Notes under the pieces: generated by a model | The model's database searches: none | What the model saw: the letters and a program-made list of their open reading frames with translations, nothing else | Told to the model about the DNA's origin: nothing | In this document: in pieces, positions 24,005 to 50,645 of the stretch | Layout of the letters: each line of letters begins with the position of its first letter | Numbering within the stretch: the stretch's first letter is position 1 | Program-made: the position numbers and the translations under genes | Source of the DNA: a virus | Taxonomy: Duplodnaviria > Caudoviricetes | Direction: 5' to 3' (one strand) | Virus record (IMG/VR): IMGVR_UViG_3300032050_000002 | Length of the DNA: 64,000 nt

Positions 24005-24007
24005 TTT

Positions 24008-24691: not shown

Positions 24692-24696
24692 AATAT

Positions 24697-27550: not shown

Positions 27551-28248
27551 TTTAAATCTTTTAATTTTTTAATTATTTCTATTAATACATTAACATCTTT
27601 TTCGCAATACTCTGAAATTTTTTCCAAACTTTTTTCACGCCAATAATATTCATGAATATTTTCTCCCGTAACCTCCCCATTTTTTGGCGTCTCAATTCCA
27701 AGACAAGAGCATAATAAATCCAATGAACCTATAGAACTATATGACCCGTATTGCCATATCTCTTTGGTGTCAATCGCCTTAACCTCCCAAGGTTTTGTGT
27801 CGTATGAAGGTAATATTGATGGTGGTAAAATACCATTAATAATCATTCTTTTTGCAAGGACAGGAATATCAAAGTTTTTTAAATTATGCCCACAAAGAAA
27901 GAAATCTAATTTACCACATCTATCAAGTAATTTTTGAACACCGATTAAGATTTCTTTTTCGTCATGACCTGAAAATGTTTGTTTTTTAACATCACCATTA
28001 TCCATTACAAACGCAACACTAACACAAATAATTTTTGAAAATTCAGGTACAAGACCTGAACGTTTAGAAAACATATCATTAATGTTTAATGAGGAATCTT
28101 CAGGAAATCTTTTTTGAAACCAATCGAAGTATTTTTCAAATCTGTTGGCTAATTCAGGTTTTGATTCACCACAAGAATTAAAATCTTTACATCCTCCGAC
28201 AGTTTCAATATCGATAAATAAAATTTTTGTTATTGGAATTTTTATCAT
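27547..28248 (-). CDS. DnaQ-like 3'-5' exonuclease (PolB-exo-like)
   Basis: FIDIETV (ExoI), GHNLKNFDIP (ExoII), YCEKDV (ExoIII). Confidence 0.88.
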   Translation of the reverse strand: MIKIPITKILFIDIETVGGCKDFNSCGESKPELANRFEKYFDWFQKRFPEDSSLNINDMFSKRSGLVPEFSKIICVSVAFVMDNGDVKKQTFSGHDEKEILIGVQKLLDRCGKLDFFLCGHNLKNFDIPVLAKRMIINGILPPSILPSYDTKPWEVKAIDTKEIWQYGSYSSIGSLDLLCSCLGIETPKNGEVTGENIHEYYWREKSLEKISEYCEKDVNVLIEIIKKLKDLK

Positions 28249-29459: not shown

Positions 29460-29484
29460 AATTTTATTTTCTTTTATAAGAGAA

Positions 29485-29513
29485 AATATAATATATTAAG
29501 TTGTTTAAATCAA
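29485..29513 (-). promoter_or_regulatory. sigma70-like promoter TTGATT-N17-TATATT
   Basis: minus-strand match upstream of the GT/dUTPase/PhoH/sigma gene run. Confidence 0.5.
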
Positions 29514-29540
29514 TGTTATTATTATAGATTTATAATTATT

Positions 29541-34298: not shown

Positions 34299-37139
34299 AT
34301 GTCAAGTCAAAATATTAATCAATATGTTTATAACAATTTGTTTCCTAAGTTGTCATTAGACACTCAAGACATGTCTTTAACTTCGGATGAATTGGAGTTT
34401 AATCAGGAGGTTGTTTTTTCGCCATATTTGATTGCTCAAACATACGGGAACAAATTACCTTTTTATTTTGATACTAATAATAGTGTAACAACACAAAATT
34501 TAACTTTAATATATAAAAACTATAATCCAAATAATATATTTGTTTCACAAAACTACTATAATCCCGATGAAAAAGATTTAACTTGTTTTACTTCTTCAAC
34601 ATCCTGTGATATTGGTTTAACGGGAACTGACAATGGTTTAGTTACAGGTTTAACCGCTCAGACAATTACATTTACAAATGGACTTTTTTCTGATAGTTTA
34701 AAATTCGACAGATTACATTTTGATAGAAGATTTAAAATGTTTCAGGTGACAGGTTACACAAGTTCACCCAATATTATGTTTTCAGGATTCAATAAAACAA
34801 TACTATATGAAGTTGTAAGTAAAAACTCTCCATTTGAGGGTAGATATGAGGAGCTTTACGGAGGATTTTATCAAGGGTTTTATAAATTATTTGGTTACGA
34901 TTATGATATTTTTCCAGAAAGGATGAATAAAGGTTGGTCAGTTGAAATGATACTTAAGCCAAGATTTATTAATGAATTTTATCCCGAACCAAATGAAACA
35001 ACATTAAATAATATTTACCCAAATAATAAAAACACATTCTTTTATTTTGGAACCAGAGCAGAAAACAAATTTTATCATCACGCGGATAAAACTCCAAATT
35101 GTTTTACAGGTTATACGAGAGTAACTTCAGAATTAACCGGCTTAACAACATGTGCTTGTTGTAATAAAATAATTACAAATAGTAGATGTATATACGTTTA
35201 TCCACCAAGGTCTAAAGATAATGTTCACGACCCTCATGTTAATTATGGTTGTGATAGATGTAACGGTAATAAAGATATTAGTACTAGTTGTGGTTGTGGA
35301 TGTAACGAAATTGCGTGCGAAACTTGTGGGTGGGAATGTCAATACCATAATTGTGAATCAATTATTTATCCAACTCCAACACCAACTCCTACCCCAACAC
35401 CAACACCAAATAATTGTGTTGTGACTCCCCAATGTACACCTACTTGTACGGACTGTTCGGGATGTACTAATTGTTCTGATTGTGCGGTAACAGGATTTAC
35501 CTCTATAGAAGATACTTGTGAAAAAGACCCATTATATGATAGTATGTCAAATGCGTTTTCACTTAAACTTTGTGGAGACATTAAAAATCCACAAATAGGT
35601 GTTAGATTTTTAAGATTTACAGGTGAATGTGTTACTACAGGAAGTTGCGAAACAACTGGGAAAACATGGAGCACGGGTTATACAATAACAGAATACTGTA
35701 CTCCACCAATCTATCCTAGATGTGAAAAAGAAAACCCAAATTGGTTAAATGAAGAACATTGGTTTCAAATTAATGTTGTTTGGGAAAGGTATTCTTTTTG
35801 GGATAAATGTGATTTAAATTATAAAGGTGGATTGGGGGATATTACAAAAACCGCTTTTTTAAACTCATTAGCGAATAATTCGGTGTCGTTAATCGCTCCA
35901 CCATATACAAATGGACAAGAAGAATCGTTACAGATAACACTAACAAATTTAAATAAAAAATGGTTAGAAGAGAAAAAATATAGAAATGGAAGATTAAAAT
36001 TTTATGTTAATGGAAAATTACATTATACGGTTGAGAATTTTGAGGAAATAATTCCAAGAGCATTAAATACGGATAAAGAAAAACAAGTCGGAGTTCCGTT
36101 TAACGTATCTTGGGGTGGAGGGACTCAAGGGTTAAGAGAAAATTTAATTTTCTCATCTACGACATTACCAAACGGACCATACATACAAGACCCTGAGTTA
36201 TTTCCAAATAATGTTTTATCGGCAACAACTCTTAGTGGTTTAAACACCAATATTTTAATTGAACAAAATTTTGCAGGTACTTTTGAGGGAGCAATATCCC
36301 AATTCAGAATGTATGTAACCCCTATGTCATCACCAGAGGTTAAACATAATTTTAATATTCTAAAAAATACATTTAGAATGTTTAACCCTGATTGTCCAGA
36401 TTGCTCAACAATAAAATGCGTAGATGATTTTACATATGAAATAGAAGACGTTACAACCACTACAACAACAATAATTCCAACAACTCCATATGGTTTAGGT
36501 AGAGAATTAAAAATTGATGAAAGAGATAAAAAGTATTTAATAGAGAATAAATTAACTTTACCAAAAACCACGGTAACTCAAATGTATTGGGATGATAATG
36601 GGTGGTGGGGGAACCAAGGTAATACTCCTCAATGCGTTGGGTATTCTTGGGCTCATTTTATTGATGACGGTCCTATAAAACACTCAGGACCTAAACCAAA
36701 CACAAATCCAACTTTAATATATAGAGAAGCTCAAAAAATTGATGAGTGGATGGGAGAAAATTATGATGGAACTTCGGTTAGAGCTGGAGCAAAATATTTA
36801 AAAAGTCAAAATAAGATTAGTTCTTATTTATGGGCATATAATTTAGATACATTAATTAAAACCGTATTAACTCAAGGACCTGTTGTTGTTGGGACAAATT
36901 GGTATAATGGAATGTTTTATCCTGATAAAAATGGTTTAATAAAAATATCAGGTAGAATTATGGGTGGTCATGCTTACGTAATTAATGGTATCGATACAAA
37001 AAAACAACTATTTAGAATTAAGAATAGTTGGGGTCGTTCATGGGGAGTTAAAGGTAGTGCGTTTATAAGTTTTGCTAACATGCAAAGATTAATTAATGAA
37101 AACGGTGAGATTTGTTTAGCGGTAGAAAATAAGTTTTAA
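34299..37139 (+). CDS. virion-type protein (Cys-rich + Pro/Thr + LamG-like) fused to a C-terminal papain-family (C1A) cysteine peptidase
   Basis: [12 protein letters not shown] (Gln, Cys), GGHAYVING (His), [11 protein letters not shown] (Asn); LKFYVNGKL and ISQFRMY LamG-like strands. Confidence 0.8.
35370..35408 (+). repeat. coding (PT)n tract
   Basis: ccaact/ccaaca hexamer repeats encoding [13 protein letters not shown]. Confidence 0.9.
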
Positions 37140-37141
37140 GT

Positions 37142-38161
37142 ATGAGTCAAAGTATTACAATAAAAAGTATTAATTATGAAGGTGAAATTGCAAACATCAT
37201 TTTTAAACCTGCGGACGAATTAATTGCAATAAATTTAGGTAATCAAGTTTTACCTTTTATTTTCCAACCTTATTTGTTAGAACCACCAAGAACTGTTTAT
37301 GGTACATATACAATTCTAGTTTTAGAATCTGATTGTCCTACTATTTTAAATGTACCAAAACCAACACCAACTCCTACACCAACAAATACTCCCACAAAAA
37401 CACCTACACCAACACCAACTGCTACCCCAAGTCCAACGCCTACATACAACCCTTGTAATATACCTTCACCAACAAGAACGCCGACACCAACTAAAACTCC
37501 AACCCCAACCAATACTCCAACCCCATCAGTTACAAAAACTCCTTGTTACACACCAACCCCAACAAATACCTCAACTCCAACTCCTACCCCAACTCCTGTT
37601 TATTTTGCATACTTATTTATTGAACCAATTAGTGGTTCAACAAGTATTGGTCAATGGATGTTTGATTCAGGGTCTAATTTCTATGGATTTACAAATACAT
37701 CTCAACCAACTCAAAACCAAACAATATTTAATTCCGACTTAAACAGATATGTTGATTTTACAGGATGGACTAACGGAGAATTTCCATCAATTATTAAACA
37801 AACCGTACCTCAAATAAGTGGTGGGGTTGATTCATTTGGAAATGCCAAAGTTAAATATAATTTCTTAACAACTCATGTGGTAGAGAATAGTATTGGAAGT
37901 AAAGCTTGGTATACTTGGATTATACCTACATCTTTAACTAATAACGAAACTCAAGTATTAATTGATGTTAATACCGCAGATAACCCTAATTTGTTTACAA
38001 CAGTTGCTACTGAAGGAACGATAAACTCATATACATTTACATATACAGGGTCAACAATCCCTAATACAACTTATAAAGTTTATACAACTTTCCCAAATAC
38101 AATATTCCAAATAACCGACTCTCAAAATATTTATTTCAGAGGTAATGCAACATCACCATAA
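37142..38161 (+). CDS. virion-type protein with long Pro/Thr tract
   Basis: [15 protein letters not shown]-terminus; ~80-aa PT-rich segment. Confidence 0.75.
37355..37597 (+). repeat. mucin-like Pro/Thr coding tract (~81 codons)
   Basis: [19 protein letters not shown]...TPTPTPTP. Confidence 0.9.
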
Positions 38162-38163
38162 GT

Positions 38164-39021
38164 ATGAGTTTTAACTATAAGAACCCAATAACTCCGTTAT
38201 ATTCTTTAGGGAATATTAGTGTCAAAAGAGATAACGTTTTTGGTACTAATTTTAGTGTGCTATCAACTGGTGGTTTTATGGAGGTTTATGATATTGATGA
38301 CCTTTATTTTACAATACCTCCATCTACGGTGGGTCTTGTAGAGTACACTGGAAATACGATACCAATACAATTAAATGTTAGTAATGGTTCTCTATTTTCA
38401 TTTAATGTATTAACTTTAAATTCAGACAATATATCTTCAGGTAGAAGAAGAATTGGTATGTTGGCGTATGTTATTAATCAAGACCAAGTATATCAATTTC
38501 AAATACCAAATTATTATAATTTATGGACGGCAGCAACCGCAACAGGAGCGGTAGGTCCTGGTGGTCCAACGGCAGTATTTTCTGATTTTGGAACAACAAT
38601 AAAAAGTAATACTCAAGTAGGTATTAATTTTATTTCCGCTTGGACGGCAAATACAATTGAGGGTATTAGTGGAGAAACATTTACAACCGCAAATTGGAAA
38701 AAATTTAATCCATCTGCAACTATCACCGCAACTTGTTACAATCAAATAATTACTAAAGAATTAATAGGTTGTGATTTATCAGGTATAACATTATCTTCAG
38801 ATATTACTCCAAACTCAGATAACACTATAAATTTGGGAACGGGTATTAAAAGATTTAGAAACATAAATACCGTTAGTGGAACAAGTACTTATTGGTCATC
38901 GACAGTTAAAGTTATAACTCCCGAGATTGATTTAGGTTTAGATTCTTCGGGTAATACAAGAACAATAACCGCCGATAGCTCAATAATACAATATGATATT
39001 TTAAACGGTGGAAATTTTTAA
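38164..39021 (+). CDS. putative tail/fibre-associated protein
   Basis: RRRIGMLAYV motif; ends DILNGGNF like the neighbouring DVLDGGQY. Confidence 0.55.
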   Translation: MSFNYKNPITPLYSLGNISVKRDNVFGTNFSVLSTGGFMEVYDIDDLYFTIPPSTVGLVEYTGNTIPIQLNVSNGSLFSFNVLTLNSDNISSGRRRIGMLAYVINQDQVYQFQIPNYYNLWTAATATGAVGPGGPTAVFSDFGTTIKSNTQVGINFISAWTANTIEGISGETFTTANWKKFNPSATITATCYNQIITKELIGCDLSGITLSSDITPNSDNTINLGTGIKRFRNINTVSGTSTYWSSTVKVITPEIDLGLDSSGNTRTITADSSIIQYDILNGGNF

Positions 39022-39057
39022 AAAAAAATAAACGATATATTTATAAAGTAAAAAATA

Positions 39058-40692
39058 ATGGCAACAAGACAAACACGGTTAATAACCAAAAACTCGTTAA
39101 CATCAAATCAACCTCTATCGGGGGCAACCGCATTAAAAGGTGAAGCGGTAGTAAACTTATTTGACGGTATACTATATTACTCAGGCGCGAGCGGAGGAGG
39201 ATTTGTATCATCGGATAATCCAACATCAGGCTTTTTTGAGGTGGGTTCAAACCTATATCAATTAAAAATTAGAGATAAAATAACATCTTATAGCGGAGTA
39301 ACCAATTTATCAGGTCAATTCCTTTCAGGCACATCAACAGGATTTGTTTTAGCTCCAATATCTTCTATTCAGGGTGTTGATAGACATGTTACGGGTTTTA
39401 CTTACGACCCAAATACAAATTCGTTCACAATAACTCAAAGTGAAGGAGGTCCTACAAAAACCGCTTCATTTGACTCAGTGTCAGGGTTAACTATTAACGG
39501 TAATTTGACTGTAACAGGAAATACTGTATTATCTTCAATTACTGGTGGTAGTACAACAATTAATGGTAATTTAACTGTAACAGGAAATACTAATTTAAGT
39601 GGTACAACTTTATATGACGAAACTGTTTCGGGGACAAATCCTCTAGAAATTATAAATTTAAATTATTTAACGGGATACGTACAAACCACTGATGTTTATG
39701 TAACCGGCGCAACTTACACACCCGCAACAAATGATACGGATTATACAAGTTGGTTATTACAATATCACGGTACTCCAATAGGAAGTCCTCACTCTTTCTC
39801 AGGTGAGAACACATTTGTAACTGGTGGTACTTATAGTTTAGGAACAATTACCTTTAACTATAACGATAGTGGTAAACCCGCTTTTACAGTAACAGGTATT
39901 GACGGAACTGATACATACGTAACAGGAGGTACAATATCAACATACCCTTCAACAAGTAATATTACAGGTCAAACTCAATTATCTTATAATAATCCTGAGG
40001 CTGGAGGTCCTTATTATTTACCTTATAGTGATGTATTTGTAACAGGTTTTACTTACTCTAATAACACATTTACAATTAAAGATAATAGTGGTAACACTTA
40101 TTCTGATGTTATTAATACCGTTACAGGTTTAACTGTTAATGGTAATTTAACGGTAACAGGTTTAGGTACTAATAGAGTTGTTTATACAACAACAGGTGGT
40201 TTATTAACAACTGAAAGTAATTTTGGATATAATGATGGAACAGATACTTTATCGGTTCAAAACATTGATGCGAGTGGAGATGTTACAGTCCAAGGTTCAT
40301 TAACGGTTTTCGGACCTAGTATATCCGCATTTACTACTAACTTATATGTTGAAGACCCTAACATTTATTTGAACTATAACCCAACAGGTTCTACAACTGT
40401 AACTTCAGTTAATGCCGGTTTTACAATTCAAGATGGTAATGGAGTTTCTAGTGGAGATGTTAATTTTGATATTATTAGATTACAAAATTTAACAGGATTA
40501 ACATCAAACAATGTTCCAAATGTTTCAGAATATACCTCCCCAACAGGGTATTCTAATAGAGGTTGGATAACTCAATTAAATGATATCGTTATTAGAAGTA
40601 CTGATGTCACCGATGAAATAACTCCGCCATCATCAATTAATGGTGTTAGGGTATTGGCAGAATTTGACGTACTCGATGGGGGTCAATATTGA
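39058..40692 (+). CDS. tail fibre-like protein
   Basis: Thr/Gly/Ser-rich, repeated INGNLTVTGN and YVTGGTY motifs, VEDPNIYLN. Confidence 0.65.
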   Translation: MATRQTRLITKNSLTSNQPLSGATALKGEAVVNLFDGILYYSGASGGGFVSSDNPTSGFFEVGSNLYQLKIRDKITSYSGVTNLSGQFLSGTSTGFVLAPISSIQGVDRHVTGFTYDPNTNSFTITQSEGGPTKTASFDSVSGLTINGNLTVTGNTVLSSITGGSTTINGNLTVTGNTNLSGTTLYDETVSGTNPLEIINLNYLTGYVQTTDVYVTGATYTPATNDTDYTSWLLQYHGTPIGSPHSFSGENTFVTGGTYSLGTITFNYNDSGKPAFTVTGIDGTDTYVTGGTISTYPSTSNITGQTQLSYNNPEAGGPYYLPYSDVFVTGFTYSNNTFTIKDNSGNTYSDVINTVTGLTVNGNLTVTGLGTNRVVYTTTGGLLTTESNFGYNDGTDTLSVQNIDASGDVTVQGSLTVFGPSISAFTTNLYVEDPNIYLNYNPTGSTTVTSVNAGFTIQDGNGVSSGDVNFDIIRLQNLTGLTSNNVPNVSEYTSPTGYSNRGWITQLNDIVIRSTDVTDEITPPSSINGVRVLAEFDVLDGGQY

Positions 40693-40710
40693 TGCAATAA
40701 CTTTATATTT

Positions 40711-40740
40711 AAAAAAGGGAAGAATTTACTTCCCTTTTTT
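40711..40740 (+). terminator. intrinsic terminator (could act in both directions)
   Basis: AAAAAAGGGAAG-aattta-CTTCCCTTTTTT. Confidence 0.85.
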
Positions 40741-40806
40741 ATTTTATACATATTTATTAAGTGAGGTTATATAACCTAATAACGTGACTCTATATAGAGA
40801 TTTTTA

Positions 40807-42240
40807 ATGGCGAATAGAAAAACAACCTTTCTTTTAAGAAGGTCAAATGTTATTGATAAGATACCTGATTTAACAGGTCTTACAATTGGTGAATTAGCGG
40901 TTAACACTGCCGATGCAAAACTTTACACAATATATACAAGTGGAACAACTGGTGCTACTGAAGTTAGACAAATTGGTTGGGATAGACTATCAATAATTTC
41001 AGGAGGCACCGTTTCAGGTAATACTATATTCACTTCGGGAGTCACGGGAAATTCATTTAATATATTTTCAACACCTGTAAATAATAATACAAACTCACAA
41101 ATTTTAACAAGAAATTCCACAACTGGTAATGTTGAATATAGGACCCTTTCAAGTATAACAGGTGATTACTTACCATTATCAGGAGGTACTGTAACGGGAG
41201 GAGTGGTATTTACTTCGGGTATTACGGCAAATACTATATCTAATGTTCAGTATATAGATTTTAATAAAACCGCCAGTACGACTCATGTTGAGGGTAGAGT
41301 TCATTGGAATAATGATATTAAAAGTTTGGAGATTGATACCGAAAATCCTGAAGTTCAATTAGAAGTTGGTCATGAATTAGTTCTTAGAGTTGTTAATAAA
41401 ACCGGAGCTGACATCCCAAAAGGAAGAGCGGTTTATATAGATGGTGAACAAGGTCAAAGACCAACAATTAGATTAGCGAGTTTTACTGCTGATACTACGT
41501 CTGCGTCGGTAGTTGGTTTAACAATGGCACAAATAAGTAACAATAATAATGGATATGTTATTTTAAATGGTTTGTTAGTCGGAAGTATTTCTGAACCGTT
41601 AGATACAAGTTCATATAGTGCGGGAACACCATTATATCTTTTAACCGGAGGAACATTAACAGATATAAAACCTCAAGCTCCTGACCACGATGTTAGAATT
41701 GGTAAGGTAGTTGTTTCAAACGCAACAACAGGTTCAATATACGTTCAAGTCCAAAACGGATACGAATTAGATGAGCTACACGATGTTAGGATAACAAATA
41801 AGACATTTGGGGATATTATAACTCTAAGTGCTTATAACGGAAATGATGTTTGGGTTAATTCAAAAACTTTAAATGGTTCTTATACAATAACAGGAAGTAC
41901 ATCGATTAATAACGGGTTATTTGTAACGGGTAACACAACTTTACAATCGTTTACCGCGGGAACAGGAACAATTAATGGTAATTTAACTGTTACGGGAAAT
42001 ACAAACGTAAGAGATGTCACAGGTACTACAGGGACGTTTAATGGAAATTTATTAGTTACCGGTACGTCAAGTGCGTCAACGGTTACCATAACGTCAACCC
42101 CGACAAGTGGTATAACATCCACCCAAATTTTAGTAAGAAATTCAACAACAGGTGTTGTTGAGTATACCGATAATACGTCACCAACCATATTTAATTATGG
42201 TTTGGCTTACGCATTTAGTACATCAAATATAACAGTTTAA
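40807..42240 (+). CDS. tail fibre-like protein with Mtd_N-like N-terminus
   Basis: LLRRSNV...IP...GELAVNTADAKLY; shares a ~210-aa module with 53135..55702. Confidence 0.65.
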   Translation: MANRKTTFLLRRSNVIDKIPDLTGLTIGELAVNTADAKLYTIYTSGTTGATEVRQIGWDRLSIISGGTVSGNTIFTSGVTGNSFNIFSTPVNNNTNSQILTRNSTTGNVEYRTLSSITGDYLPLSGGTVTGGVVFTSGITANTISNVQYIDFNKTASTTHVEGRVHWNNDIKSLEIDTENPEVQLEVGHELVLRVVNKTGADIPKGRAVYIDGEQGQRPTIRLASFTADTTSASVVGLTMAQISNNNNGYVILNGLLVGSISEPLDTSSYSAGTPLYLLTGGTLTDIKPQAPDHDVRIGKVVVSNATTGSIYVQVQNGYELDELHDVRITNKTFGDIITLSAYNGNDVWVNSKTLNGSYTITGSTSINNGLFVTGNTTLQSFTAGTGTINGNLTVTGNTNVRDVTGTTGTFNGNLLVTGTSSASTVTITSTPTSGITSTQILVRNSTTGVVEYTDNTSPTIFNYGLAYAFSTSNITV

Positions 42241-42263
42241 TAAAAAAATAAAAAATATAAATT

Positions 42264-42689
42264 ATGCCAGCAAACGTACAACCAATTTACACAAGAGAAC
42301 CTGACGTACAATGGACGATTTCAGCGATGACAGTTGCCAACACAACAAAAGATTTAACGGGAGGAACCATTTATTTAGCGTTTACTGCCGACACAACAAA
42401 CGGTAGTTATGTGCAAAGAATTAGATTTAGACCATTAGGGACTAATAATAGTGCCACTGTTGCTAGGGTTTGGATAAATAACGGTTCAACAACGACTACC
42501 GCAGCAAATAATGCGTTAATAGACGAAATAACATTACCAACAATAACAAATTCTGAGGTAGCAGCACAGTCAAATTATGAATTACCTCTAAATTTTGGAC
42601 TAGCACCTAGTGATAGAATTTATGTCACACTTGGTACCGCACCAAATTCTGCGGGATGGCAAGCAACGGTTATTGGGGGTAAATATTAA
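42264..42689 (+). CDS. small beta-sandwich virion-type protein
   Basis: MPANVQPIY...LPLNFGLAPSDRIYV...VIGGKY. Confidence 0.6.
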   Translation: MPANVQPIYTREPDVQWTISAMTVANTTKDLTGGTIYLAFTADTTNGSYVQRIRFRPLGTNNSATVARVWINNGSTTTTAANNALIDEITLPTITNSEVAAQSNYELPLNFGLAPSDRIYVTLGTAPNSAGWQATVIGGKY

Positions 42690-42701
42690 AAATACAATAT
42701 T

Positions 42702-42896
42702 ATGAAATATAGTTTATGTCAATTTGAATATGGTTATGAAGGACAATTTTATCAAATCTGTGATTTAAATAGTGAAATTGGATTTGTTAGGTTTTCTGAT
42801 TTGGATGGGAATACTTTAGAATTAGTACCACCATACGGTTATTACATAGTTGATGGTGATTCACCAACACCGACTTGGGATTTAAATAATGATTGA
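42702..42896 (+). CDS. small hypothetical protein
   Basis: 64-aa ORF coupled to the next gene. Confidence 0.6.
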   Translation: MKYSLCQFEYGYEGQFYQICDLNSEIGFVRFSDLDGNTLELVPPYGYYIVDGDSPTPTWDLNND

Positions 42897-43809
42897 TTAT
42901 TCTAATATATCACAAATAACAAACCATCAAACTTTTTTCGGTTTAGGTTCAACTGTTTGGCAGACTTGGCAAAAACCAAAAAATACAAATTTTGTCTTTA
43001 TAACCGCAATAGGTGGAGGTGGTGGTGGAGGAGGTTCTACAAATAGTACCTCCCTATCAATTGCTGGAGGTGGTGGAGGAGGATGTTCATCAATATCAAA
43101 AATATTTGTTCCCTCTTTCTTGTTACCCGATACATTATATATAAATGTTGGTATGGGTGGAGCTGGAGGTGTAAATGCTGCCGGTTCTTCAGGTGGAATT
43201 TCGACCATTTCAATACAACCAAACACAACTTCTTCAAATGTTATTATTGAATCAGGAATTGTTGGTGCGGGGGGAGGTTCAAGAGGAACATCAACCGTAG
43301 GCAGCGGTACTGCCGGAACTGGAGGTACCGCGTTTGTAACATCAGAAGGATTCTTATCATCATTAGGTACTTGGTCAAGTTTTAATGGTATTTCAGGGGC
43401 AAATGGTGGTGCCCCAGGATTTAACGCCGGAGGGACTGTTACTGCTTTAAACACTTTCATATTGACAGGTGGTGGTGGTGGTGGCGGAAGAAGTACATCA
43501 AATGGGGGTGCCGGTGGTAGTATATTAGCAAATGGGGTTTTAGGTAGGTCGGCAGGAGGAACACCTACTAATGACGGAACAAATGGATTGATTACTATAA
43601 GACCAACACTTTTAACGTATTCATCAACAAAGTTTCCTTTTGCTGCAACAGGTGGTGCTGGAGGTGGTGGTGCAGGTCCCGCCGCTACGGGTGGTTCTGG
43701 TGGTAATGGTGAAATTGGGTGTGGTGGGGGAGGTGCCGGTGGTGGTGAAGAGGGTGCTGGTAATGGTGGTAGAGGAGGTAATGGAATTGTATTTATAACA
43801 ACTTTTTAA
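42889..43809 (+). CDS. glycine-rich tail-associated protein
   Basis: IGGGGGGGG, many GGxGG motifs, ends GGRGGNGIVFIT. Confidence 0.75.
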   Translation: MIDYSNISQITNHQTFFGLGSTVWQTWQKPKNTNFVFITAIGGGGGGGGSTNSTSLSIAGGGGGGCSSISKIFVPSFLLPDTLYINVGMGGAGGVNAAGSSGGISTISIQPNTTSSNVIIESGIVGAGGGSRGTSTVGSGTAGTGGTAFVTSEGFLSSLGTWSSFNGISGANGGAPGFNAGGTVTALNTFILTGGGGGGGRSTSNGGAGGSILANGVLGRSAGGTPTNDGTNGLITIRPTLLTYSSTKFPFAATGGAGGGGAGPAATGGSGGNGEIGCGGGGAGGGEEGAGNGGRGGNGIVFITTF

Positions 43810-43820
43810 TTTTTTAATAT

Positions 43821-44777
43821 ATGATAGATTTTTTTAACTTACCAAATATAACAAATACACAAGTATTTTATGCTCAAGGAACGACTGTTTGGCAAATATG
43901 GCAAAAACCAAGAAATTGTAAATTTGTTCACTTGTTTGTATTAGGTGGTGGAGGTGGTGGTGGTGGAGGTAGAGGTGGTGGTAGTGCTCCTGCAACAGGT
44001 GGCGGAGGAGGGGCGTCTTCTTCTGTAACGACAGGATTTTTTACCGCAAACCTTATACCGGATAACCTTTATATTTTGGTAGGACCTGGTGGGACTTCAG
44101 GACCTGGTGGAGGTTCAGGAACAAACGGAACTGTGGGTGGTAATGGTTCATTATCATATGTTTCTGTAACAAATAGTGCGTCCGCAGCAAATGTTATTTT
44201 GGCCAGTGGAAACGCCGCGGCAACAGGAGGTTCAGGTGGGATTGCCGGACCTAACACGGTTGCTGGAGGAACTGCCGGGACATCGTTTACATCGACAAAC
44301 GGATTATTGTCTAATTTGGGAATTGTAAATTCAATTGGTGGCCAAATTGGTCTTTCAGGTCAAAATCTTTCCGCTGGAGTTGACGTTACTATCACGGGTA
44401 TAACATCTGGAGGTGCGGGAGGTGGTGGAGCTCAAAGTAGTGCTACGGTATACTCTGGAGGGTCAATAAACTCGTCAGGATTTATACCAAGAGTAAATGG
44501 TGGTGTTTTAGGTCTCGGTTCCAATGGTGGAACGGCCAATTCTGGATTTATTAGTTTAAACCCTTCTTCTTTATCAACATCAAAACAACCATTCTTAACC
44601 ACAGGTGGTGCTGGAGGAGGGGGTTCAACAAATAATGGAGTTGGTACATTTACCGGTGGAACTGGAGGTAATGGTGGTTATGGCTCTGGCGGTGGAGGAG
44701 GTGGAGGAGCATATAGTAATACTGGAGGCGCCGGAGGTAGAGGTGGTAATGGTATTGTAATAATAACTTCTTGGTAA
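43821..44777 (+). CDS. glycine-rich tail-associated protein (paralog of 42889..43809)
   Basis: same WQxWQKP.N..FV N-terminus and GGRGGNGIV.IT C-terminus. Confidence 0.75.
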   Translation: MIDFFNLPNITNTQVFYAQGTTVWQIWQKPRNCKFVHLFVLGGGGGGGGGRGGGSAPATGGGGGASSSVTTGFFTANLIPDNLYILVGPGGTSGPGGGSGTNGTVGGNGSLSYVSVTNSASAANVILASGNAAATGGSGGIAGPNTVAGGTAGTSFTSTNGLLSNLGIVNSIGGQIGLSGQNLSAGVDVTITGITSGGAGGGGAQSSATVYSGGSINSSGFIPRVNGGVLGLGSNGGTANSGFISLNPSSLSTSKQPFLTTGGAGGGGSTNNGVGTFTGGTGGNGGYGSGGGGGGGAYSNTGGAGGRGGNGIVIITSW

Positions 44778-44792
44778 GATATTTATAATTAA

Positions 44793-45305
44793 ATGCAAAC
44801 AATAGAAATAACAGGAGCAACAGGGACAGGACCTTACGATGTTTATCTTTGTGATATAACATTAACATATTGTTTTTTAATTTCGGGTTCAACAACAATC
44901 CCACCAACCGTATCATTCGAATTACCATCGTCATTACCAAACCCTTTTCCTCCACCAGCGAATATATCTTTTACAGGTGCGGATTCAGTCATTGTTAAAT
45001 TAGTCGATACATCAAGTGGATGTGAAAAATTCATATATTATGGTTGCCCTGTTAGTCCAACACCAACACCCACAATGACTCCAACCCCAACTCCTACACC
45101 TACTTCAACTTGTAGATGTATTACGGTATCTGCAAGTACAATCACAAATGGTGTGTTTTATTATACAGATTGTTTTGGGGTTACATTAGCGCCAATAACC
45201 GTAACTCAAAATACGATATCTTATTATTGTGGAACAAATCCAATCATTGTATCAGATTGTTCAGTTACTTTAGGGTCTCCTTGCGTATCAGGTTCTTGTC
45301 CTTAA
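44793..45305 (+). CDS. Cys-containing virion-type protein with Pro/Thr tract
   Basis: [21 protein letters not shown] at 45048-45110; GATATTTATA 5 nt upstream of ATG. Confidence 0.7.
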   Translation: MQTIEITGATGTGPYDVYLCDITLTYCFLISGSTTIPPTVSFELPSSLPNPFPPPANISFTGADSVIVKLVDTSSGCEKFIYYGCPVSPTPTPTMTPTPTPTPTSTCRCITVSASTITNGVFYYTDCFGVTLAPITVTQNTISYYCGTNPIIVSDCSVTLGSPCVSGSCP

Positions 45306-45359
45306 TTTTTATTAATCTATTCATATTTATTTGATTTTTTTTATTTTTAAAATAAAAAA

Positions 45360-46607
45360 ATGTCAAAGATTTTTATTCAAATTGCATCTTATAGAGACCC
45401 ACAATTAATTCCAACAATTAAAAGTATGTTGGAAAACGCAAAGAATCCACAAAATTTAGTTTTAGGTATTTGTAGACAATATCACCCTGATGATAAATTT
45501 GATGATTTATCAGAGTATAAAAATGATAAAAGATTCAGAGTTTTAAATGTTTTATACACAGAATCAAAAGGTGTTTGTTGGGCAAGAAATCAAGTCCAAC
45601 AATTATATAAAAACGAAAAATATACATTACAAATTGACTCACACATGAGGTTCGCTCCAAATTGGGATGTTGAAATGATTAATATGGTTAGAGACCTTCA
45701 AAAGAAAGGTTATAAAAAACCATTATTAACAGGATATGTATCATCGTTTGACCCTGACAATGACCCAAATGGAAGAGTTAATGAACCTTGGAGAATGGTA
45801 TTTGATAGATTTATCCCTGAAGGAGCGGTTTTCTTTTTACCTGAAACAATTCCAGATTGGAAAAATTTAACCGAACCAGTTACGACAAGATTTTATTCCG
45901 CTCACTATTGTTTTACTTTGGGACAATTTTCAAAAGAAGTTATTCATAATCCAAATTACTATTTTCACGGAGAAGAAATCTCAATTGCTGTGAGAGCTTA
46001 TACTCATGGATATGATTTATTTCATCCTCATAAAGTTTTAATTTGGCACGAGTACACAAGAAAGAATCGTACAAAACAGTGGGATGATGACAAGGAGTGG
46101 TTTAAAAAGAACGACCAATCACACAAATTAAATAGACAACTATTCGGTATGGATGGTGAGGAAATGATTGATTTTGGTGAGTATGGTTTTGGTAAGGAAA
46201 GAACTTTAGAAGATTATGAAAAGTATGCAGGAATTAAATTTTCATTAAGAGGAGTTCAACAATATACTTTAGATAAAAATTACCCTCCTAATCCATATAA
46301 TTACGAATCTCAAGAAGAATGGTTAAAAAGTTTCTCATCAATCTTTAAACATTGTATTGATGTTCACTTTAATCAAGTTCCTGAAAAAGATTATGATTTT
46401 TGGGTGGTAGCGTTTCATAATGAAAAAGATGAGACAATATATCGAAAAGATGCCGATATAAATGAAATAAACAGAATGATGACCGACCCTGACGGATATT
46501 GTAAAATATGGAGAGAATTTCAAACAACAATTAAACCAAAGTATTGGGTTGTTTGGCCATATAGTAAATCTAAGGGGTGGTGCGATAGATTAACAGGAAA
46601 TTTATGA
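45360..46607 (+). CDS. GT60-family (GlcNAc/Gnt1-like) polypeptide GlcNAc-transferase
   Basis: IFIQIASYRD, GVCWARN, LQIDSHMRF (DxH), FYSAHY, YFHGEEI, RAYTHGYDLFHP. Confidence 0.82.
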   Translation: MSKIFIQIASYRDPQLIPTIKSMLENAKNPQNLVLGICRQYHPDDKFDDLSEYKNDKRFRVLNVLYTESKGVCWARNQVQQLYKNEKYTLQIDSHMRFAPNWDVEMINMVRDLQKKGYKKPLLTGYVSSFDPDNDPNGRVNEPWRMVFDRFIPEGAVFFLPETIPDWKNLTEPVTTRFYSAHYCFTLGQFSKEVIHNPNYYFHGEEISIAVRAYTHGYDLFHPHKVLIWHEYTRKNRTKQWDDDKEWFKKNDQSHKLNRQLFGMDGEEMIDFGEYGFGKERTLEDYEKYAGIKFSLRGVQQYTLDKNYPPNPYNYESQEEWLKSFSSIFKHCIDVHFNQVPEKDYDFWVVAFHNEKDETIYRKDADINEINRMMTDPDGYCKIWREFQTTIKPKYWVVWPYSKSKGWCDRLTGNL

Positions 46608-47323
46608 AAAAAATATTATTAACAATGTTGTTTTGGACTGATGGTCAAAGTCAGTCTACCAGAGAAAGAAATGTTAAATTTACGTTTCCAAAAATTATAG
46701 ATTTAACCGAATTTTTAAATAAAAATAATATTGAATGCGAATTCAAACTATATGATTTTTCACCTATTAAAGTAATTTACGATTCAATTCATATACCTTA
46801 CGAGTTAGGGGATTATAAACGGTCTGAAAAAATAAATCTAATATTAAAACAAAATGAAAATTTTGATTTTGTATTTATGTTTGATTGCGATACTTTTTTT
46901 AATGAATCTAATTTTTTACAAATATTAAACATTATTAATAATTTAGAAAAGGGGGATATTGTGACTTTTGATGCTGCAAAACTAAAAGAAGAGGATTTAG
47001 ACTTAATATTTAAAACCGGCAACGTTGATGAAAAAACCACAGATTGGTGGTATGCGTATTCAGGTGAAAAAAAATACGGACCTTTAAACGGAAGAGCGGG
47101 TGGATTAGGTGGCGTTTTTATTTGTGATATAGATTTAATATTAGGTAATGGCGGGTTTGATGAAAAATATGTTGGTTGGGGTGGAGAAGATGGAGATATG
47201 TTGGATAGAATAATTAATTCAAAAAAACTTAATAGATTAACTCCGACTAGAGATTTTGCGCCTTATCATCTCCCACATTTTGTGGATTTAAATAACAAAA
47301 AATATAATAAAAGATTCAAATAA
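46604..47323 (+). CDS. GT-A glycosyltransferase with GT7 C-terminal (galactosyltransferase-like) motif
   Basis: FMFDCD (DxD), GGFDEKYVGWGGEDGDM, YHLPH. Confidence 0.8.
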   Translation: MKKILLTMLFWTDGQSQSTRERNVKFTFPKIIDLTEFLNKNNIECEFKLYDFSPIKVIYDSIHIPYELGDYKRSEKINLILKQNENFDFVFMFDCDTFFNESNFLQILNIINNLEKGDIVTFDAAKLKEEDLDLIFKTGNVDEKTTDWWYAYSGEKKYGPLNGRAGGLGGVFICDIDLILGNGGFDEKYVGWGGEDGDMLDRIINSKKLNRLTPTRDFAPYHLPHFVDLNNKKYNKRFK

Positions 47324-47339
47324 TAAAAAAATTAAATTT

Positions 47340-48188
47340 ATGAAAACACTTTTTATAACCTCTATTTATTCAAATCTTTGGGGCACTGAGTTTGGCGGAA
47401 GACCTAGTAGAGAGTATCATTATAGGATAAGTCTTCAAAACATTTTGAATATGAATCCCACAAAATGTGTTTGTTTCACTTCATCAGATGAAATAGAAAA
47501 TCTAAAAAATGTATTCTATAATAATTTTAAAATGCCTCAAGAACAATTATCATTTGTAATTTTTGATTTACACAATACCAAATATTTTGATGAGATTAGA
47601 AAATTAAAAAATTTGGAGGAGATGAAAAGAACCGATAGATGTTATGAAATTCAGTATAATAAATTTATGTGGAAATATAACATAAATGAAATTTATAATT
47701 ATGATAGGGTTTATTGGATTGACTCTGGATTATCTCATGGAGGTATTTTTCCTGAAAAATACCAAAAAGATAATAGTCGAGAAGGTCATTATAAAATAAG
47801 TTTATTTAGTCAAAAATATTTAAACCATTTAAATCAATTAACTTCAGATAAGATTCTTTTATTATCTAAAAATAATGAAGGACAATTTTTTTGGTCGCAA
47901 CAAATACCCCAACATTATTATAAAGAATTTGATAGGTCTAAACATATTATCGGAGGTCTTTTTGGGGGAACACCAAAAAAATTTTTAGAATTTTGTGATA
48001 AGTTTGAAACTTTATTAATACAATTATTAAGAAATGAAAATCAATTATATATGGAAGAACTAATAATGTCTTGTCTATATTTTAATGAAAAAAATAATTT
48101 TACTTTATTGGAATTCGATGATTGGTATAAAAGAGAGCACCATAATGACCCTAATATAAAATATTTTTATAATATGTTTGAATTATGA
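47340..48188 (+). CDS. HtrL/YibB (WlaTC-like) putative glycosyltransferase
   Basis: YNKF, VYWIDSG, IIGGLFGG, MEELIM. Confidence 0.65.
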   Translation: MKTLFITSIYSNLWGTEFGGRPSREYHYRISLQNILNMNPTKCVCFTSSDEIENLKNVFYNNFKMPQEQLSFVIFDLHNTKYFDEIRKLKNLEEMKRTDRCYEIQYNKFMWKYNINEIYNYDRVYWIDSGLSHGGIFPEKYQKDNSREGHYKISLFSQKYLNHLNQLTSDKILLLSKNNEGQFFWSQQIPQHYYKEFDRSKHIIGGLFGGTPKKFLEFCDKFETLLIQLLRNENQLYMEELIMSCLYFNEKNNFTLLEFDDWYKREHHNDPNIKYFYNMFEL

Positions 48189-49855
48189 TTACATTAGTTA
48201 CGGGTCTTTGGGATATAAAAAGAGATAGTCTTTCTGAAGGGTGGTCTCGTTCATTCGAGCATTACAAACAAAAATTTTCAGAACTACTTAAAGTAGAAAA
48301 TAATATGATTATATTCGGTGACCCCGAGTTAGAGTCATTTGTTTGGGAACATAGAGGTAAAGAAAATACACAGTTTATTGTAAGATATCAATCTTGGTTT
48401 AAGACCAACGAATATTATGAATTAATTCAAAAGATTAGAAACAATCCAGAATGGTTTAATCAAGTAGGTTGGTTAACAAATTCCACTCAAGCAAAACTTG
48501 AGATGTATAACCCACTTGTAATGTCAAAGATGTTTTTATTACATGATGCGAAAATACTTGATAGGTTTAATTCCGAATATCTATTTTGGATTGATGCTGG
48601 TCTTACAAACACTGTTCACCCTGGTTATTTTACTCACGACAAAGTTTTAGAGAAGTTGCCAAAATACGTTAATAACTTTAACTTTGTTTGTTTTCCTTAT
48701 GAAGCAAATACCGAAATTCATGGGTTCAAATTTGATAAGATGAATGACTATTCAGGTAAGAAAGTTGATAAGGTTGCTAGAGGAGGATTTTTTGGTGGTA
48801 GAAAAGAATCAATAACCGAAATTAATAATCTATATTACAATTTATTAGTTGAGACATTAAACAATGGTTTAATGGGTACTGAAGAAAGTTTATTTACAAT
48901 TCTATTATACAAATACCCAAACACATTTAGTTATTCTGAAATAGAAGGTAATGGTCTTATGGGTAAATTTTTTGAGGATTTAAAAAACGATTCTGTGGTC
49001 GTCAAATCGGAAAAACCAATTAGACAAGAGATTAAAAATATTGATACGAGTAAGGTTGGTTTATATGTTATTACATTTAATTCACCAAATCAGTTTGAGA
49101 CATTAATTAAATCAATGTTAGAATATGACTCTGATTTTATAACAAAAACAAAAAAGTTTTTACTTGACAACTCAACAGATTTATCAACAACTCCAAGATA
49201 TAAACAATTATGTGAGCAATATGGTTTTGAACACATAAAGAAAGATAATTTGGGAATTTGTGGTGGAAGGCAATTTGTGTCTGACCATTTTAATGAATCT
49301 GATTTAGATATAATGGCGTGGAGCGAAGATGATATGTTTTTTCAAAACAAACCTAATGAAACTTGTAGAAATGGGTTTAATAGATACACATCAAATTTAT
49401 ATCAAAAATGTTTAGATATTTTAAAGAAAGAAAATTTTGATTTTTTAAAAATAAACTTCACGGAATTCTACGGAGATAATTCAACTTGTTGGCCGTGGTA
49501 TAATGTTCCGCAAGATTTTAGACAAAAACATTGGCCAAATAAACCAAATCTTCCTGTGCAAGGTTTAGACCCCGATTCTCCTTTGTCGAAATATAAACAT
49601 ATTAAATCTTATAAAGGTTTACCTTATGTTAGTGGTGACATTTATTATTGTAATTGGACTCATTTTATAACAAAAGAAGGTAATAGAAAAATGTTTCAAG
49701 AAACAAAATGGGATAGACCATTTGAACAAACTTGGATGAGTCATATATATCAAGAAACAATTAAAAGTAAAATTAACCCTGGTTTATTACTATTAACACC
49801 AATTGAGCATAACCGTTTTGAACACTATGACGGTAAATTAAGAAAAGAAAGTTAA
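48185..49855 (+). CDS. HtrL/YibB-like domain fused to a second GT-A-like domain
   Basis: ITLVTGLWDI, FWIDAG, RGGFFGG, TEESLF; C-terminal LLDNS, AWSEDDM. Confidence 0.7.
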   Translation: MITLVTGLWDIKRDSLSEGWSRSFEHYKQKFSELLKVENNMIIFGDPELESFVWEHRGKENTQFIVRYQSWFKTNEYYELIQKIRNNPEWFNQVGWLTNSTQAKLEMYNPLVMSKMFLLHDAKILDRFNSEYLFWIDAGLTNTVHPGYFTHDKVLEKLPKYVNNFNFVCFPYEANTEIHGFKFDKMNDYSGKKVDKVARGGFFGGRKESITEINNLYYNLLVETLNNGLMGTEESLFTILLYKYPNTFSYSEIEGNGLMGKFFEDLKNDSVVVKSEKPIRQEIKNIDTSKVGLYVITFNSPNQFETLIKSMLEYDSDFITKTKKFLLDNSTDLSTTPRYKQLCEQYGFEHIKKDNLGICGGRQFVSDHFNESDLDIMAWSEDDMFFQNKPNETCRNGFNRYTSNLYQKCLDILKKENFDFLKINFTEFYGDNSTCWPWYNVPQDFRQKHWPNKPNLPVQGLDPDSPLSKYKHIKSYKGLPYVSGDIYYCNWTHFITKEGNRKMFQETKWDRPFEQTWMSHIYQETIKSKINPGLLLLTPIEHNRFEHYDGKLRKES

Positions 49856-49901
49856 TCTATTTATTTTACATTATTAAAGTATTTATATGATAAAAAGATA
49901 G

Positions 49902-50645
49902 ATGGATTTTTTTATCAAAAAAAATAGTACTCTCCCACTTTTAAAATTACAGGTCGTAAAGAATGGTCGTAACGATTATGATAATTTTATGAAAACCATA
50001 GAATTATCAGCAATCTTCTTTTCAATGGTCGATATTGAAACGGGAGTTGCTAAGATAAGTTCAAGACCCGCAGGATTTGTAGAAAAAACTTTTATTGACC
50101 CAAACGCAGAACCTGAATATTATATTTACTATCAATTTACAAATAGAGATACAAATAAAGTAGGTAGATATGAAGGTCAGTTTATGTTAAGAAATGATGA
50201 CGGAGTTTTAATATTACCTATTAGAGAAAAACTTTTTATTAATATTCAAGAGTCATTTATCGCGGATGATTTACCATATGAGAATTGTTATACATCAGAA
50301 TTTCCTTGTTGCGTTAACGGACCTTATACAACAACTACAACAACGACTCCGTGTCCAAGTTGTCCAACTTGTCCTGAACCAACTCAAACTCCTATAACAA
50401 CTACTACAACAACAATTATCCCTATAACAACTACTACGACAACAATAAATATAACTGAAACGCCAACTCAAACTCCTACAGTAACTCCAACTCCTACAAT
50501 AACACCAAGTCCGACACCGGCACCTCAAAACGATTTGATGTTTATGTTTATTCCTGAAGGTGATATAGAATTTGTATTAATACCTGACGGTGATTTAGGA
50601 GTTTTTGATTTACCAATTGATGATTTAGGTTTTGAATTTTTATAA
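49902..50645 (+). CDS. BppU-like Ig-fold virion protein with Thr/Pro tract and acidic tail
   Basis: FFIKKNSTLPLLKLQ...YQFTNRDTNKVGRYEGQF; PT/T-run tract 50322-50525. Confidence 0.65.
   Translation: MDFFIKKNSTLPLLKLQVVKNGRNDYDNFMKTIELSAIFFSMVDIETGVAKISSRPAGFVEKTFIDPNAEPEYYIYYQFTNRDTNKVGRYEGQFMLRNDDGVLILPIREKLFINIQESFIADDLPYENCYTSEFPCCVNGPYTTTTTTTPCPSCPTCPEPTQTPITTTTTTIIPITTTTTTINITETPTQTPTVTPTPTITPSPTPAPQNDLMFMFIPEGDIEFVLIPDGDLGVFDLPIDDLGFEFL

Follow-up and report, generated by a model that had tools for sequence, protein, structure and literature searches.

The window analysed here is a stretch of 64,000 nucleotides corresponding to positions 58691-122690, minus strand, of the 203-kb IMG/VR virus record IMGVR_UViG_3300032050_000002, and it carries in a row four open reading frames (ORFs), 45360-46607, 46604-47323, 47340-48188 and 48185-49855, that make up a glycosyltransferase (GT) cluster headed by a member of family GT60. 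All four are on the plus strand and closely packed, two of their junctions being 4-base overlaps and one a 16-base gap. An initial annotation, made from the sequence alone, had described four coupled glycosyltransferase genes at 45360-49855, and this is borne out by the ORFs, their common orientation, their overlaps and their family matches. The cluster lies among genes for appendage proteins of the phage, several of which contain tracts of proline and threonine (PT tracts) or poly-Thr. The genes of the cluster are listed here in window coordinates, and proteins are named below by the first coordinate of their genes.

45360..46607, plus strand: GT60-family glycosyltransferase (PF11397), 415 aa; first gene of the locus, conserved
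46604..47323, plus strand: GT-A-type transferase, 239 aa, matching Glyco_transf_7C; belongs to the variable cassette
47340..48188, plus strand: HtrL/YibB-like paralogue, 282 aa; often, not always, present in relatives; homologue of ORF332 of the cultured phage XacN1
48185..49855, plus strand: two-domain HtrL-fusion, 556 aa; last gene of the locus, conserved; homologue of XacN1 ORF330; pairs with GT60 in many bacteria

The GT60 enzyme and its closest relatives

The 45360 protein matches PF11397 ("GlcNAc") with an E-value of 1.7e-70 and 238.7 bits against a cut-off of 21, and the glycosyltransferase family phrog_24687 with an E-value of 1.4e-170. Its DSH motif, D93-S94-H95, is invariant in an alignment of 30 phage sequences with identities down to 37%. 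The initial annotation had called the enzyme GT60-like, noting this motif, and had proposed a profile search as confirmation; with that search run, the enzyme is a true member of GT60. PHROG files the family under "moron, auxiliary metabolic gene and host takeover".

An AlphaFold2 (AF2) model of the enzyme, built from a 30-sequence alignment, has a mean predicted local distance difference test (pLDDT) score of 91.4. Its best fold match in Swiss-Prot by Foldseek is Gnt1 of Dictyostelium (Q8T1C6; E 9.8e-25, 26% identity, residues 3-312), and the matches ranked after it are nearly all polypeptide N-acetylgalactosamine (GalNAc) transferases, the exceptions being two teichoic-acid transferases. The top 50 PDB chains are likewise mostly GalNAc-T1, T2, T4, T10, T12, PGANT9 and TgGalNAc-T3, with a few polysaccharide transferases, while a profile search against PDB sequences returned nothing. 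By sequence and fold together, the closest characterised relatives, Gnt1 and then family GT27, all glycosylate polypeptides.

Family GT60 of CAZy holds the Skp1 hydroxyproline N-acetylglucosamine (GlcNAc) transferase together with the mucin-type alpha-GlcNAc transferases of T. cruzi and Dictyostelium, which act on Thr and Ser. The phage enzyme shares with these PF11397 and a DxH motif, and, like the cytoplasmic Gnt1, it is soluble and without a signal peptide. It differs in being phage-encoded and paired with an HtrL-fusion, and in having an extra beta-rich domain of ~100 aa at its C-terminus (residues 310-415; window 46287-46604). This domain has no Pfam match, is kept in all phage and many bacterial homologues, and is duplicated in tandem in the XacN1-like locus L107 (9995-11716). 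A further difference is that a prolyl hydroxylase partner did not turn up: no prolyl-hydroxylase (P4H)-type oxygenase was found on the contig, which CheckV estimates to be 68% complete, and for that reason hydroxyproline was downgraded to a less likely acceptor.

The phage enzyme and the GT27 initiators have in common the GT-A fold, the DxH motif and a catalytic domain followed by an additional C-terminal domain, and the dense Thr/Pro tracts of the candidate acceptors on the phage side extend the likeness. By sequence, however, the phage enzyme belongs to GT60 and not to GT27, and its C-domain is without a Pfam match where GT27 enzymes carry a ricin-type lectin, so that the combination of GT27 and ricin-type lectin domains by which a GT27 initiator is recognised is absent from it. 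It is also cytoplasmic, whereas GT27 enzymes reside in the Golgi. By analogy with the GT27 lectin domain, the beta-rich C-domain might choose the substrate.

The other three transferases

The 46604 protein matches PF02709 (Glyco_transf_7C) with an E-value of 6.3e-9 over residues 165-207 only, and also matches phrog_26327. The earlier suggestion that a GT7 enzyme extends GlcNAc with galactose is left unsupported, given that the match covers 43 residues, that the gene is variable and that a homologue occurs, among the related loci, only in L065. The 48185 protein matches PF09612 (HtrL_YibB) in residues 2-253 (E 9e-19, 68.5 bits, cut-off 24.1); it also matches TIGR02192 of NCBIfam (E 2e-19) but under the equivalog cut-off, and is thus not a YibB orthologue. 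Its C-terminal part of ~300 aa has no match in Pfam and looks GT-A-like by eye (LYVITFN, DNSTD, EDDM). The 47340 protein has no Pfam match and is a paralogue of the N-terminal domain of the 48185 protein (BLASTP E 5e-6), with 33% identity to XacN1 ORF332 (E 1e-33). Of the two HtrL/YibB-like genes originally proposed, then, 48185 stands by its own Pfam match and 47340 is related to the family only through 48185.

A hydropathy scan found no hydrophobic segment in any ORF of at least 100 aa between 12 and 63 kb, the four cluster proteins included; the transferases of the cluster are soluble, without signal peptide or membrane anchor.

Pro/Thr-tract proteins and the structural setting

PT or poly-Thr tracts occur in only 7 of the 215 ORFs of the contig, and four of the seven are found within 34.3-50.6 kb, where translation of the genes confirmed the tracts reported earlier. 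These four proteins are the candidate acceptors.

34299..37139, plus strand: Cys-rich virion-type protein, 946 aa, candidate acceptor; (PT)n at residues 356-372, poly-Thr tether at 719-730, C-terminal papain-family peptidase
37142..38161, plus strand: protein of 339 aa, candidate acceptor; N-domain of ~65 aa, PT stalk of 84 residues (71-154), C-domain
44793..45305, plus strand: protein of 170 aa directly upstream of GT60, prime candidate acceptor; N-domain of 85 aa, PT linker at residues 88-107, Cys-rich C-module
49902..50645, plus strand: protein of 247 aa, candidate acceptor and virion anchor; BppU_N/baseplate-like N-domain at residues 1-125, poly-Thr/PT tracts at 140-206

In relatives, 19 upstream proteins begin with the conserved N-domain of the 44793 protein (E 1e-9 to 1e-39), and all 20 members of the family so defined have PT tracts, although they range from 154 to 3289 aa in length, with up to 26 tracts in a protein and up to ~110 residues in a single tract. 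On the other side of the cluster, residues 1-125 of the 49902 protein are modelled by AF2 with a pLDDT of ~90, and the fold matches 8hqz, 9m8o and 4v96 in the PDB, with baseplate proteins of phages DT57C, NF5, TP901-1 and T5, as well as BppU-domain, minor tail and baseplate proteins in BFVD; an Atlas language-model search also pointed, weakly, to BppU_N. In relatives this N-domain stands alone or is joined to PT-linked extensions, giving proteins of up to 1085 aa, and the layout of the family is one of an anchor with variable cargo, as in appendage proteins.

The genes between the first two candidate acceptors and the cluster are also of virion type:

38164..44777, plus strand: fibre/baseplate-type genes, comprising 38164, the fibre-like 39058 and 40807, 42264, and the glycine-rich 42889 and 43821

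Both 42889 and 43821 match PF21722 (Gly_rich_2), 42889 matches phrog_863 (tail fibre assembly) and phrog_754 (minor tail protein), and farther downstream 55699 and 56382 match a virion structural protein PHROG. With these matches and the baseplate-like fold of the 49902 protein, the placement of the cluster inside the structural region, between two PT-tract genes, holds as first described.

Of the remaining two candidates, the 34299 protein matches Peptidase_C1 (E 2.6e-6) and the peptidase family phrog_16701 (E 1.1e-59); its gene is the first of the plus-strand appendage block, the peptidase on its poly-Thr tether is complete, and XacN1 also has a C1 peptidase. The 37142 protein has no match in Pfam or PHROG, and an Atlas search with its C-domain gave no usable match. 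Its ~65 N-terminal residues resemble by eye those of the 50680 protein (37142-37340 and 50680-50880; I.I.S.N..G..AN..F.P...PF...YGTY), and from this likeness the two N-termini may be a common anchor domain bearing different cargoes.

Organization of the locus in related phages

Close relatives of the GT60 enzyme number 288 in viral contigs, and more than 7,500 non-redundant relatives are found in metagenomes. In a synteny set of 41 dereplicated loci (denoted L with a number, as are the other loci cited here) the gene order is constant: an appendage gene is followed by GT60, by one to eight variable genes (0.6-6.5 kb), by a homologue of the 556-aa HtrL-fusion and by a gene of the 49902 family, after which the DNA polymerase gene is often next. 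The variable cassette is remarkably diverse, its 112 proteins from 36 loci falling into 57 families. By Pfam these include transferases of types GT25, GT10, GT11, GT2, GT34, GT7C and RXYLT1 and a PLOD-type GT, along with tailoring enzymes, namely sugar O-methyltransferases of the FkbM, CmcI and TylF types, carbamoyltransferase, sulfotransferase, HAD, NTP-transferase and epimerase. Since the enzymes at the two ends are conserved while the middle is freely swapped, the structure of the glycan is probably under diversifying selection.

A second group of glycan enzymes is encoded upstream in the window.

13431..31562, minus strand: second glycan-enzyme island (Pfam), broken by non-glycan genes

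Its glycan genes encode GT2, DUF2061, an epimerase, three to four methyltransferases, DUF4422, GT2_5+GT2 and DUF5672+GT1, besides an APS kinase (17984-18565) and a sulfotransferase (18575-19177), and among them stand genes for PhoH, dUTPase and an exonuclease. The enzyme content is thus as the initial annotation had it when it proposed that this island may cap, methylate and sulfate the glycan, and the link of the island to the GT60 glycan is an indirect one. It is possible that the island tailors the glycan of the GT60 locus, because similar tailoring enzymes are found in the cassettes of relatives, because genes for APS kinase and DUF2061 lie immediately beside the GT60 locus itself in relatives L031, L035, L039, L047 and L058, and because of the neighbours of GT60 in Verrucomicrobia described below.

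Association of GT60 with PT tracts

Of 40 dereplicated loci, 30 have a PT tract in the protein encoded immediately before GT60; among the other genes the figure is 45 in 522 (odds ratio 32). With the tracts masked, the upstream proteins fall into at least seven sequence clusters, the 44793 family being the largest; masked sequences and separate N- and C-domains were used as a check against grouping by the PT tracts alone.

The initial annotation had asked whether phages with GT60 carry more PT-tract proteins, and they do. Forty-seven viral records retrieved with a random 16-mer (1.12 Mb) served as the control. A (PT)4 tract is encoded in 39 of 50 GT60-bearing records and in none of the 47 control records. 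Per Mb, GT60-bearing records as a whole have 31.7 (PT)4 tracts, those of the window's clade 41.6 and those of the XacN1-like lineage 9.5; the reversed pattern, used as a control, matched nowhere. The test also holds in the opposite direction: PF11397 is present in 11 of 68 viral records that encode (PT)6 and in 0 of the 47 random-16-mer records (Fisher p 0.003; p 0.014 when calculated per base). In five of these 11 records the GT60 is only 28-42% identical to the enzyme of the window, and in eight of them a PT protein lies no more than four genes from GT60. The association between GT60 and PT tracts is real, but as to the identity of the acceptor it is circumstantial.

GT60 in bacterial genomes

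The pair formed by GT60 and the HtrL-fusion has a wide distribution in bacteria, taking in Bacteroidota, Gemmatimonadota, Verrucomicrobiota, Burkholderiaceae and others. ORFs with PT tracts make up 21 of 326 (6.4%) at offsets 1-3 from bacterial GT60 genes and 5 of 283 (1.8%) further out, the ORFs in high-GC loci having been called with a simple greedy caller that may produce spurious frames. In four lineages, namely Jiulongibacter sediminis, Arcticibacterium, a Saprospiraceae metagenome-assembled genome (MAG) and an Acidimicrobiaceae MAG, the gene beside GT60 codes for a protein with a twin-arginine-like signal (e.g. SRRQFVKYLVGG) and, after it, 30-200 PT-rich residues, a design that suggests, as far as the sequences go, cytoplasmic glycosylation ahead of export by the twin-arginine translocation (Tat) pathway in these bacteria.

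L333, 6947-7735, minus strand: PT-rich gene with twin-arginine-like signal beside GT60
L357, 6645-7625, minus strand: the same
L320, 6675-7556, minus strand: the same
L362, 9563-10243, plus strand: the same

In Burkholderiaceae and relatives a VgrG-like type VI secretion spike protein with a C-terminal PT tract of 40-130 residues is encoded a few genes from GT60; similar genes are present in L372, L387, L389 and L390.

L375, 10267-13131, minus strand: VgrG-like protein with PT tail
L345, 11903-14392, minus strand: VgrG-like protein with PT tail

In the Verrucomicrobia loci L370, L371, L374 and L383, GT60 is followed by homologues of the 18575 sulfotransferase of the window, and in L370 and L371 homologues of the 17984 APS kinase are also near. 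These loci are an independent physical link between GT60 and sulfation.

Comparison with cultured phages and known glycosylation systems

Among cultured phages a homologous module is found in the Xanthomonas jumbo phage XacN1 (ORF334-ORF330), with a GT60 49% identical to that of the window, a homologue of the 47340 protein and a homologue of the 48185 protein with 42% identity over its full length, and also in Xoo-sp13 and the Stenotrophomonas phages CM1 and RAS14 (GT60 45-49% identical). The core of the XacN1-type module, which uncultured relatives of XacN1 and of Xoo-sp13 (also a Xanthomonas jumbo phage) have as well, is GT60, usually the 47340 homologue, and the 48185 homologue, around a variable middle that includes a carbamoyltransferase. 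At least two protein bands of XacN1 virions are Schiff-positive, which the authors credit to two annotated transferases, one of them the GT60 homologue ORF334 (PMC5852040). The XacN1 genome was mapped in the same work by digestion with BssHII, NaeI and SpeI (PMC5852040), and because these enzymes cut the DNA, a bulky sugar modification of XacN1 DNA is disfavoured. XacN1 thus resembles the window in its GT60, its 47340 and 48185 homologues and its variable middle, and offers virions with Schiff-positive proteins; it differs in that its module stands among replication genes, without an adjacent PT protein, and in its lower PT density. A giant XacN1 protein with a PT tract, ORF325 (3313 aa), is encoded ~9 kb from the module.

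To our knowledge, direct proof that a phage glycosylates its particle with enzymes of its own exists for no more than a few mycobacteriophages. These and other cases of virion glycosylation by viruses (the capsid glycans of PBCV-1, the fibrils of mimivirus, the capsid and tail tube of mycobacteriophages) are like the present locus in the use of the virus's own soluble transferases together with tailoring enzymes, and in modification in the cytoplasm, and the authors of the XacN1 study themselves drew a comparison with virus-encoded virion glycosylation (PMC5852040). The locus of the window differs in starting with a GT60, in having conserved ends and a swapped middle, in belonging to uncultured jumbo phages of freshwater type, and in its proposed acceptors, which are the PT stalks of appendages and not N- or O-sites of capsids or C-termini. 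The latter are, according to PMC12619734, which cites Freeman et al. 2023, the known targets of phage virion glycosylation, on capsid and tail-tube subunits. Literature searches for GT60 or PF11397 together with phage gave no relevant paper, and in the papers searched neither GT60 nor PT stalks are tied to phages.

A second parallel is provided by the serine-rich-repeat adhesins of Gram-positive bacteria, which are primed with O-GlcNAc in the cytoplasm by GtfA/GtfB and extended by transferases that vary among strains, the enzymes being encoded beside their substrate. Cytoplasmic priming of Ser/Thr-rich repeats, variable extension and adjacency of enzyme and substrate genes are common to both systems, as proposed for the window. 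Unlike the present case, however, initiation there is by a GT-B (GT4) pair, and the substrates are Ser-rich adhesins exported by accessory Sec, not proteins of a phage particle.

What the locus may glycosylate

We lean, if only slightly, towards reading the locus as a phage-encoded system for cytoplasmic protein O-glycosylation, initiated by GT60, that puts glycans on the baseplate and fibre appendages of the phage itself, with the PT stalks as the likeliest acceptors. Under this reading the soluble GT60 would transfer an N-acetylhexosamine, by homology GlcNAc, from a uridine diphosphate sugar of the host to Thr hydroxyls in disordered stretches, namely the Pro/Thr and poly-Thr stalks carried by the 44793 and 49902 families and by the 37142 and 34299 proteins. 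The GT7C-type and HtrL-like enzymes of the cassette, together with the conserved protein that joins HtrL to a second domain, would then extend the sugar to an oligosaccharide, to which methyl, carbamoyl or sulfate groups could be added by cassette enzymes in relatives or by the enzymes of the 13-31 kb island here. The data establish family membership, fold, gene order, hypervariability and the statistical tie to PT tracts, whereas we infer the donor, the Thr residues of the tracts as acceptor, the order in which the enzymes act and that the particle bears the glycan.

Several points weigh against this reading. The closest characterised homologue of the enzyme acts on hydroxyproline and not on Thr. 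PT linkers are common in phage fibre proteins, and since GT60 belongs to the fibre module in this clade, the adjacency of GT60 and PT genes could be inherited synteny. The phage loci are kin to one another, and the random control, at 47 records and 1.12 Mb, is small. GT60 of the XacN1-like lineage has replication genes for neighbours and not PT proteins, and in bacteria there are many GT60 loci where the surrounding 8 kb on either side encode no PT protein. The Schiff-positive bands of XacN1 are known by their staining, and their link to ORF334 is a proposal of the authors. A complex prediction for GT60, the 44793 protein and Mn gave a score of 0.01, which is not evidence either way.

The strongest rival, unlikely in our judgement but to be taken seriously, holds that virion proteins are indeed glycosylated but in the folded domains or at the termini of capsid, sheath or fibre proteins, after the manner of chloroviruses and mycobacteriophages, the PT tracts being plain flexible linkers. 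It would account well for XacN1, with its Schiff-positive virion bands and no PT protein beside GT60, and for the fact that PT linkers are found in most appendage genes of the clade at any distance from GT60; the capsid and tail-tube C-termini named as phage targets in PMC12619734 (citing Freeman et al. 2023) agree with it too. It does not predict, however, that PT enrichment beside GT60 should span at least seven unrelated clusters of upstream proteins and divergent GT60 lineages, or that the pairing should recur in bacteria with PT proteins that are not those of a phage. The known acceptors of GT60 and GT27 enzymes, moreover, are Thr, Ser and hydroxyproline in Pro-rich disordered segments, which also counts against sites outside the tracts. 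Further from the particle, GT60 could modify a cytoplasmic protein of host or phage for regulation or takeover, as happens to Skp1 in protists, with the surface of the particle uninvolved. Gnt1, the best characterised homologue, does modify a single cytoplasmic regulatory protein, and the PHROG category of the family would fit, but we think this quite improbable: a hypervariable cassette with methyl-, carbamoyl- and sulfotransferases better fits a surface-exposed oligosaccharide, the contig yielded no prolyl hydroxylase, and the locus is embedded among appendage genes.

Two other readings take the substrate not to be protein. That the transferases remodel a surface polysaccharide of the host during infection (lipopolysaccharide (LPS), capsule or O-antigen), for instance to block superinfection, is an idea to which the name HtrL/YibB, from a gene of the LPS core region of E. 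coli, lends some colour, as do the GT25 "LPS biosynthesis" domains in the cassettes of relatives and a hypervariability like that of O-antigen loci. Iyer et al. 2021 (PMC7824862) read the polymorphic GT clusters of jumbo phages (jumbo cyanophages) in this way, as systems for modification of outer polysaccharides. We nevertheless consider it improbable here. The hydropathy scan of 12-63 kb found in the window no membrane protein, polyprenyl-phosphate priming transferase, flippase, polymerase or Gtr protein, and on the 203-kb contig, at its 68% completeness, hydropathy showed no multi-pass protein like Wzx, Wzy or WecA, the maximum being one protein of four segments; the characterised members of GT60 and the nearest fold relatives act on polypeptides; and the locus lies within the fibre/baseplate module. 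Least probable of all, in our estimate very much so, is glycosylation of hydroxymethyl-pyrimidines in the phage DNA as a shield from restriction. Phage GT-A and GT-B enzymes that build diverse DNA glycans are known (bioRxiv 10.1101/2023.12.21.572611), the locus is just upstream of the DNA polymerase gene in many relatives and among replication genes in XacN1, and the contig has a thymidylate-synthase homologue and a dUTPase. But the known pathways are usually clustered with base-modifying enzymes (bioRxiv 10.1101/2023.12.21.572611), and the contig has no match to TET/JBP (PF12851, a search whose control matched nowhere) or to C5-methyltransferase (PF00145); its only ThyA-like gene is ~77 kb from the window and has a PFN motif of the dUMP type. 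The DNA of XacN1, which has the same module, is digestible by BssHII, NaeI and SpeI (PMC5852040), and the fold matches are to polypeptide transferases, not to base-J or T4-type enzymes.

Returning to glycosylation of PT stalks, a broader proposal, possible though we hold it to be doubtful, is that GT60 and the HtrL-fusion are the core of a widespread prokaryotic system of cytoplasmic "mucin-type" O-glycosylation, which would prime Thr in Pro/Thr stalks and build on it hypervariable oligosaccharides that are sometimes sulfated, methylated or carbamoylated. The products would be a mucin-like glycocalyx on the baseplate and fibre appendages of jumbo phages and, in bacteria, glycosylated Tat-exported PT-rich proteins and VgrG PT tails. 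In the window, an enzyme homologous to the initiators of mucin-type and Skp1-type glycosylation in eukaryotes heads a glycan locus that is hypervariable, and the uncultured jumbo phages that carry it form a very abundant clade. If the glycans are on the appendages, they would be expected to affect host recognition, resistance to proteases and grazers, the stickiness of particles and their antigenicity, and would add a second layer of host-range variation, invisible in the sequences of fibre proteins. The enzyme and substrate pair would then be a compact system for the cytoplasmic O-glycosylation of Pro/Thr linkers, of possible use in glyco-engineering, and would suggest a large reservoir of GT60 in prokaryotes and viruses.

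An upstream motif

A promoter-like motif precedes the first gene of the cluster.

45323..45330, plus strand: copy of the promoter-like ATATTTAT motif; the GT60 start codon follows 37 nt downstream

The window contains 26 copies of ATATTTAT (core TATTTAT), no more than expected by chance (23.8 +/- 5.1), but 16 of the 26 are in the sense strand and precede a start codon by 13-66 nt, a placement for which about one copy would be expected. They serve 15 gene starts on the two strands, at sites that include 986, 2376, 8427 (minus strand), 12662 (minus strand), 39037, 44779, 45323, 50662, 53111 and 59938. The motif had been taken as one that the cluster has in common with virion genes. It is present at 45323 as reported, but it is not specific to virion genes, copies being found as well ahead of several minus-strand genes and of 60004, the DNA polymerase gene, and for this reason it was rejected as a sign of co-regulation with virion genes. 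Judged from its placement, it looks like a promoter element common to structural, glycan and replication genes.

The phage and its contig

The window has a GC content of ~29% and contains no tRNA genes. Megablast of the region against cultured phages gave no match, and the family-B DNA polymerase encoded at 60004 is only 22-29% identical to the enzymes of cultured phages. Related contigs reach 270-322 kb, from which we conclude that the source is an uncultured jumbo phage. Saprospiraceae MAG bins hold contigs (L315, L319, L320 and others, one of 230 kb) with a 69%-identical GT60 and a 48185 homologue and a matching GC of 0.33-0.34; these are probably phage contigs, and their binning is a hint of a Bacteroidota host for the phage. 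For another phage group, the "moraphages", PMC12619734 notes four core glycosyltransferase orthogroups and Bacteroidota hosts; the clade of the window may or may not be the same group.

The thymidylate-synthase homologue lies outside the window at 199605-202838 of the contig (minus strand), as two ORFs separated by an insert of ~1.7 kb that codes for an HNH endonuclease-like protein and two small ORFs. By analogy with the td gene of phage T4, the insert is probably an intron with a homing endonuclease.

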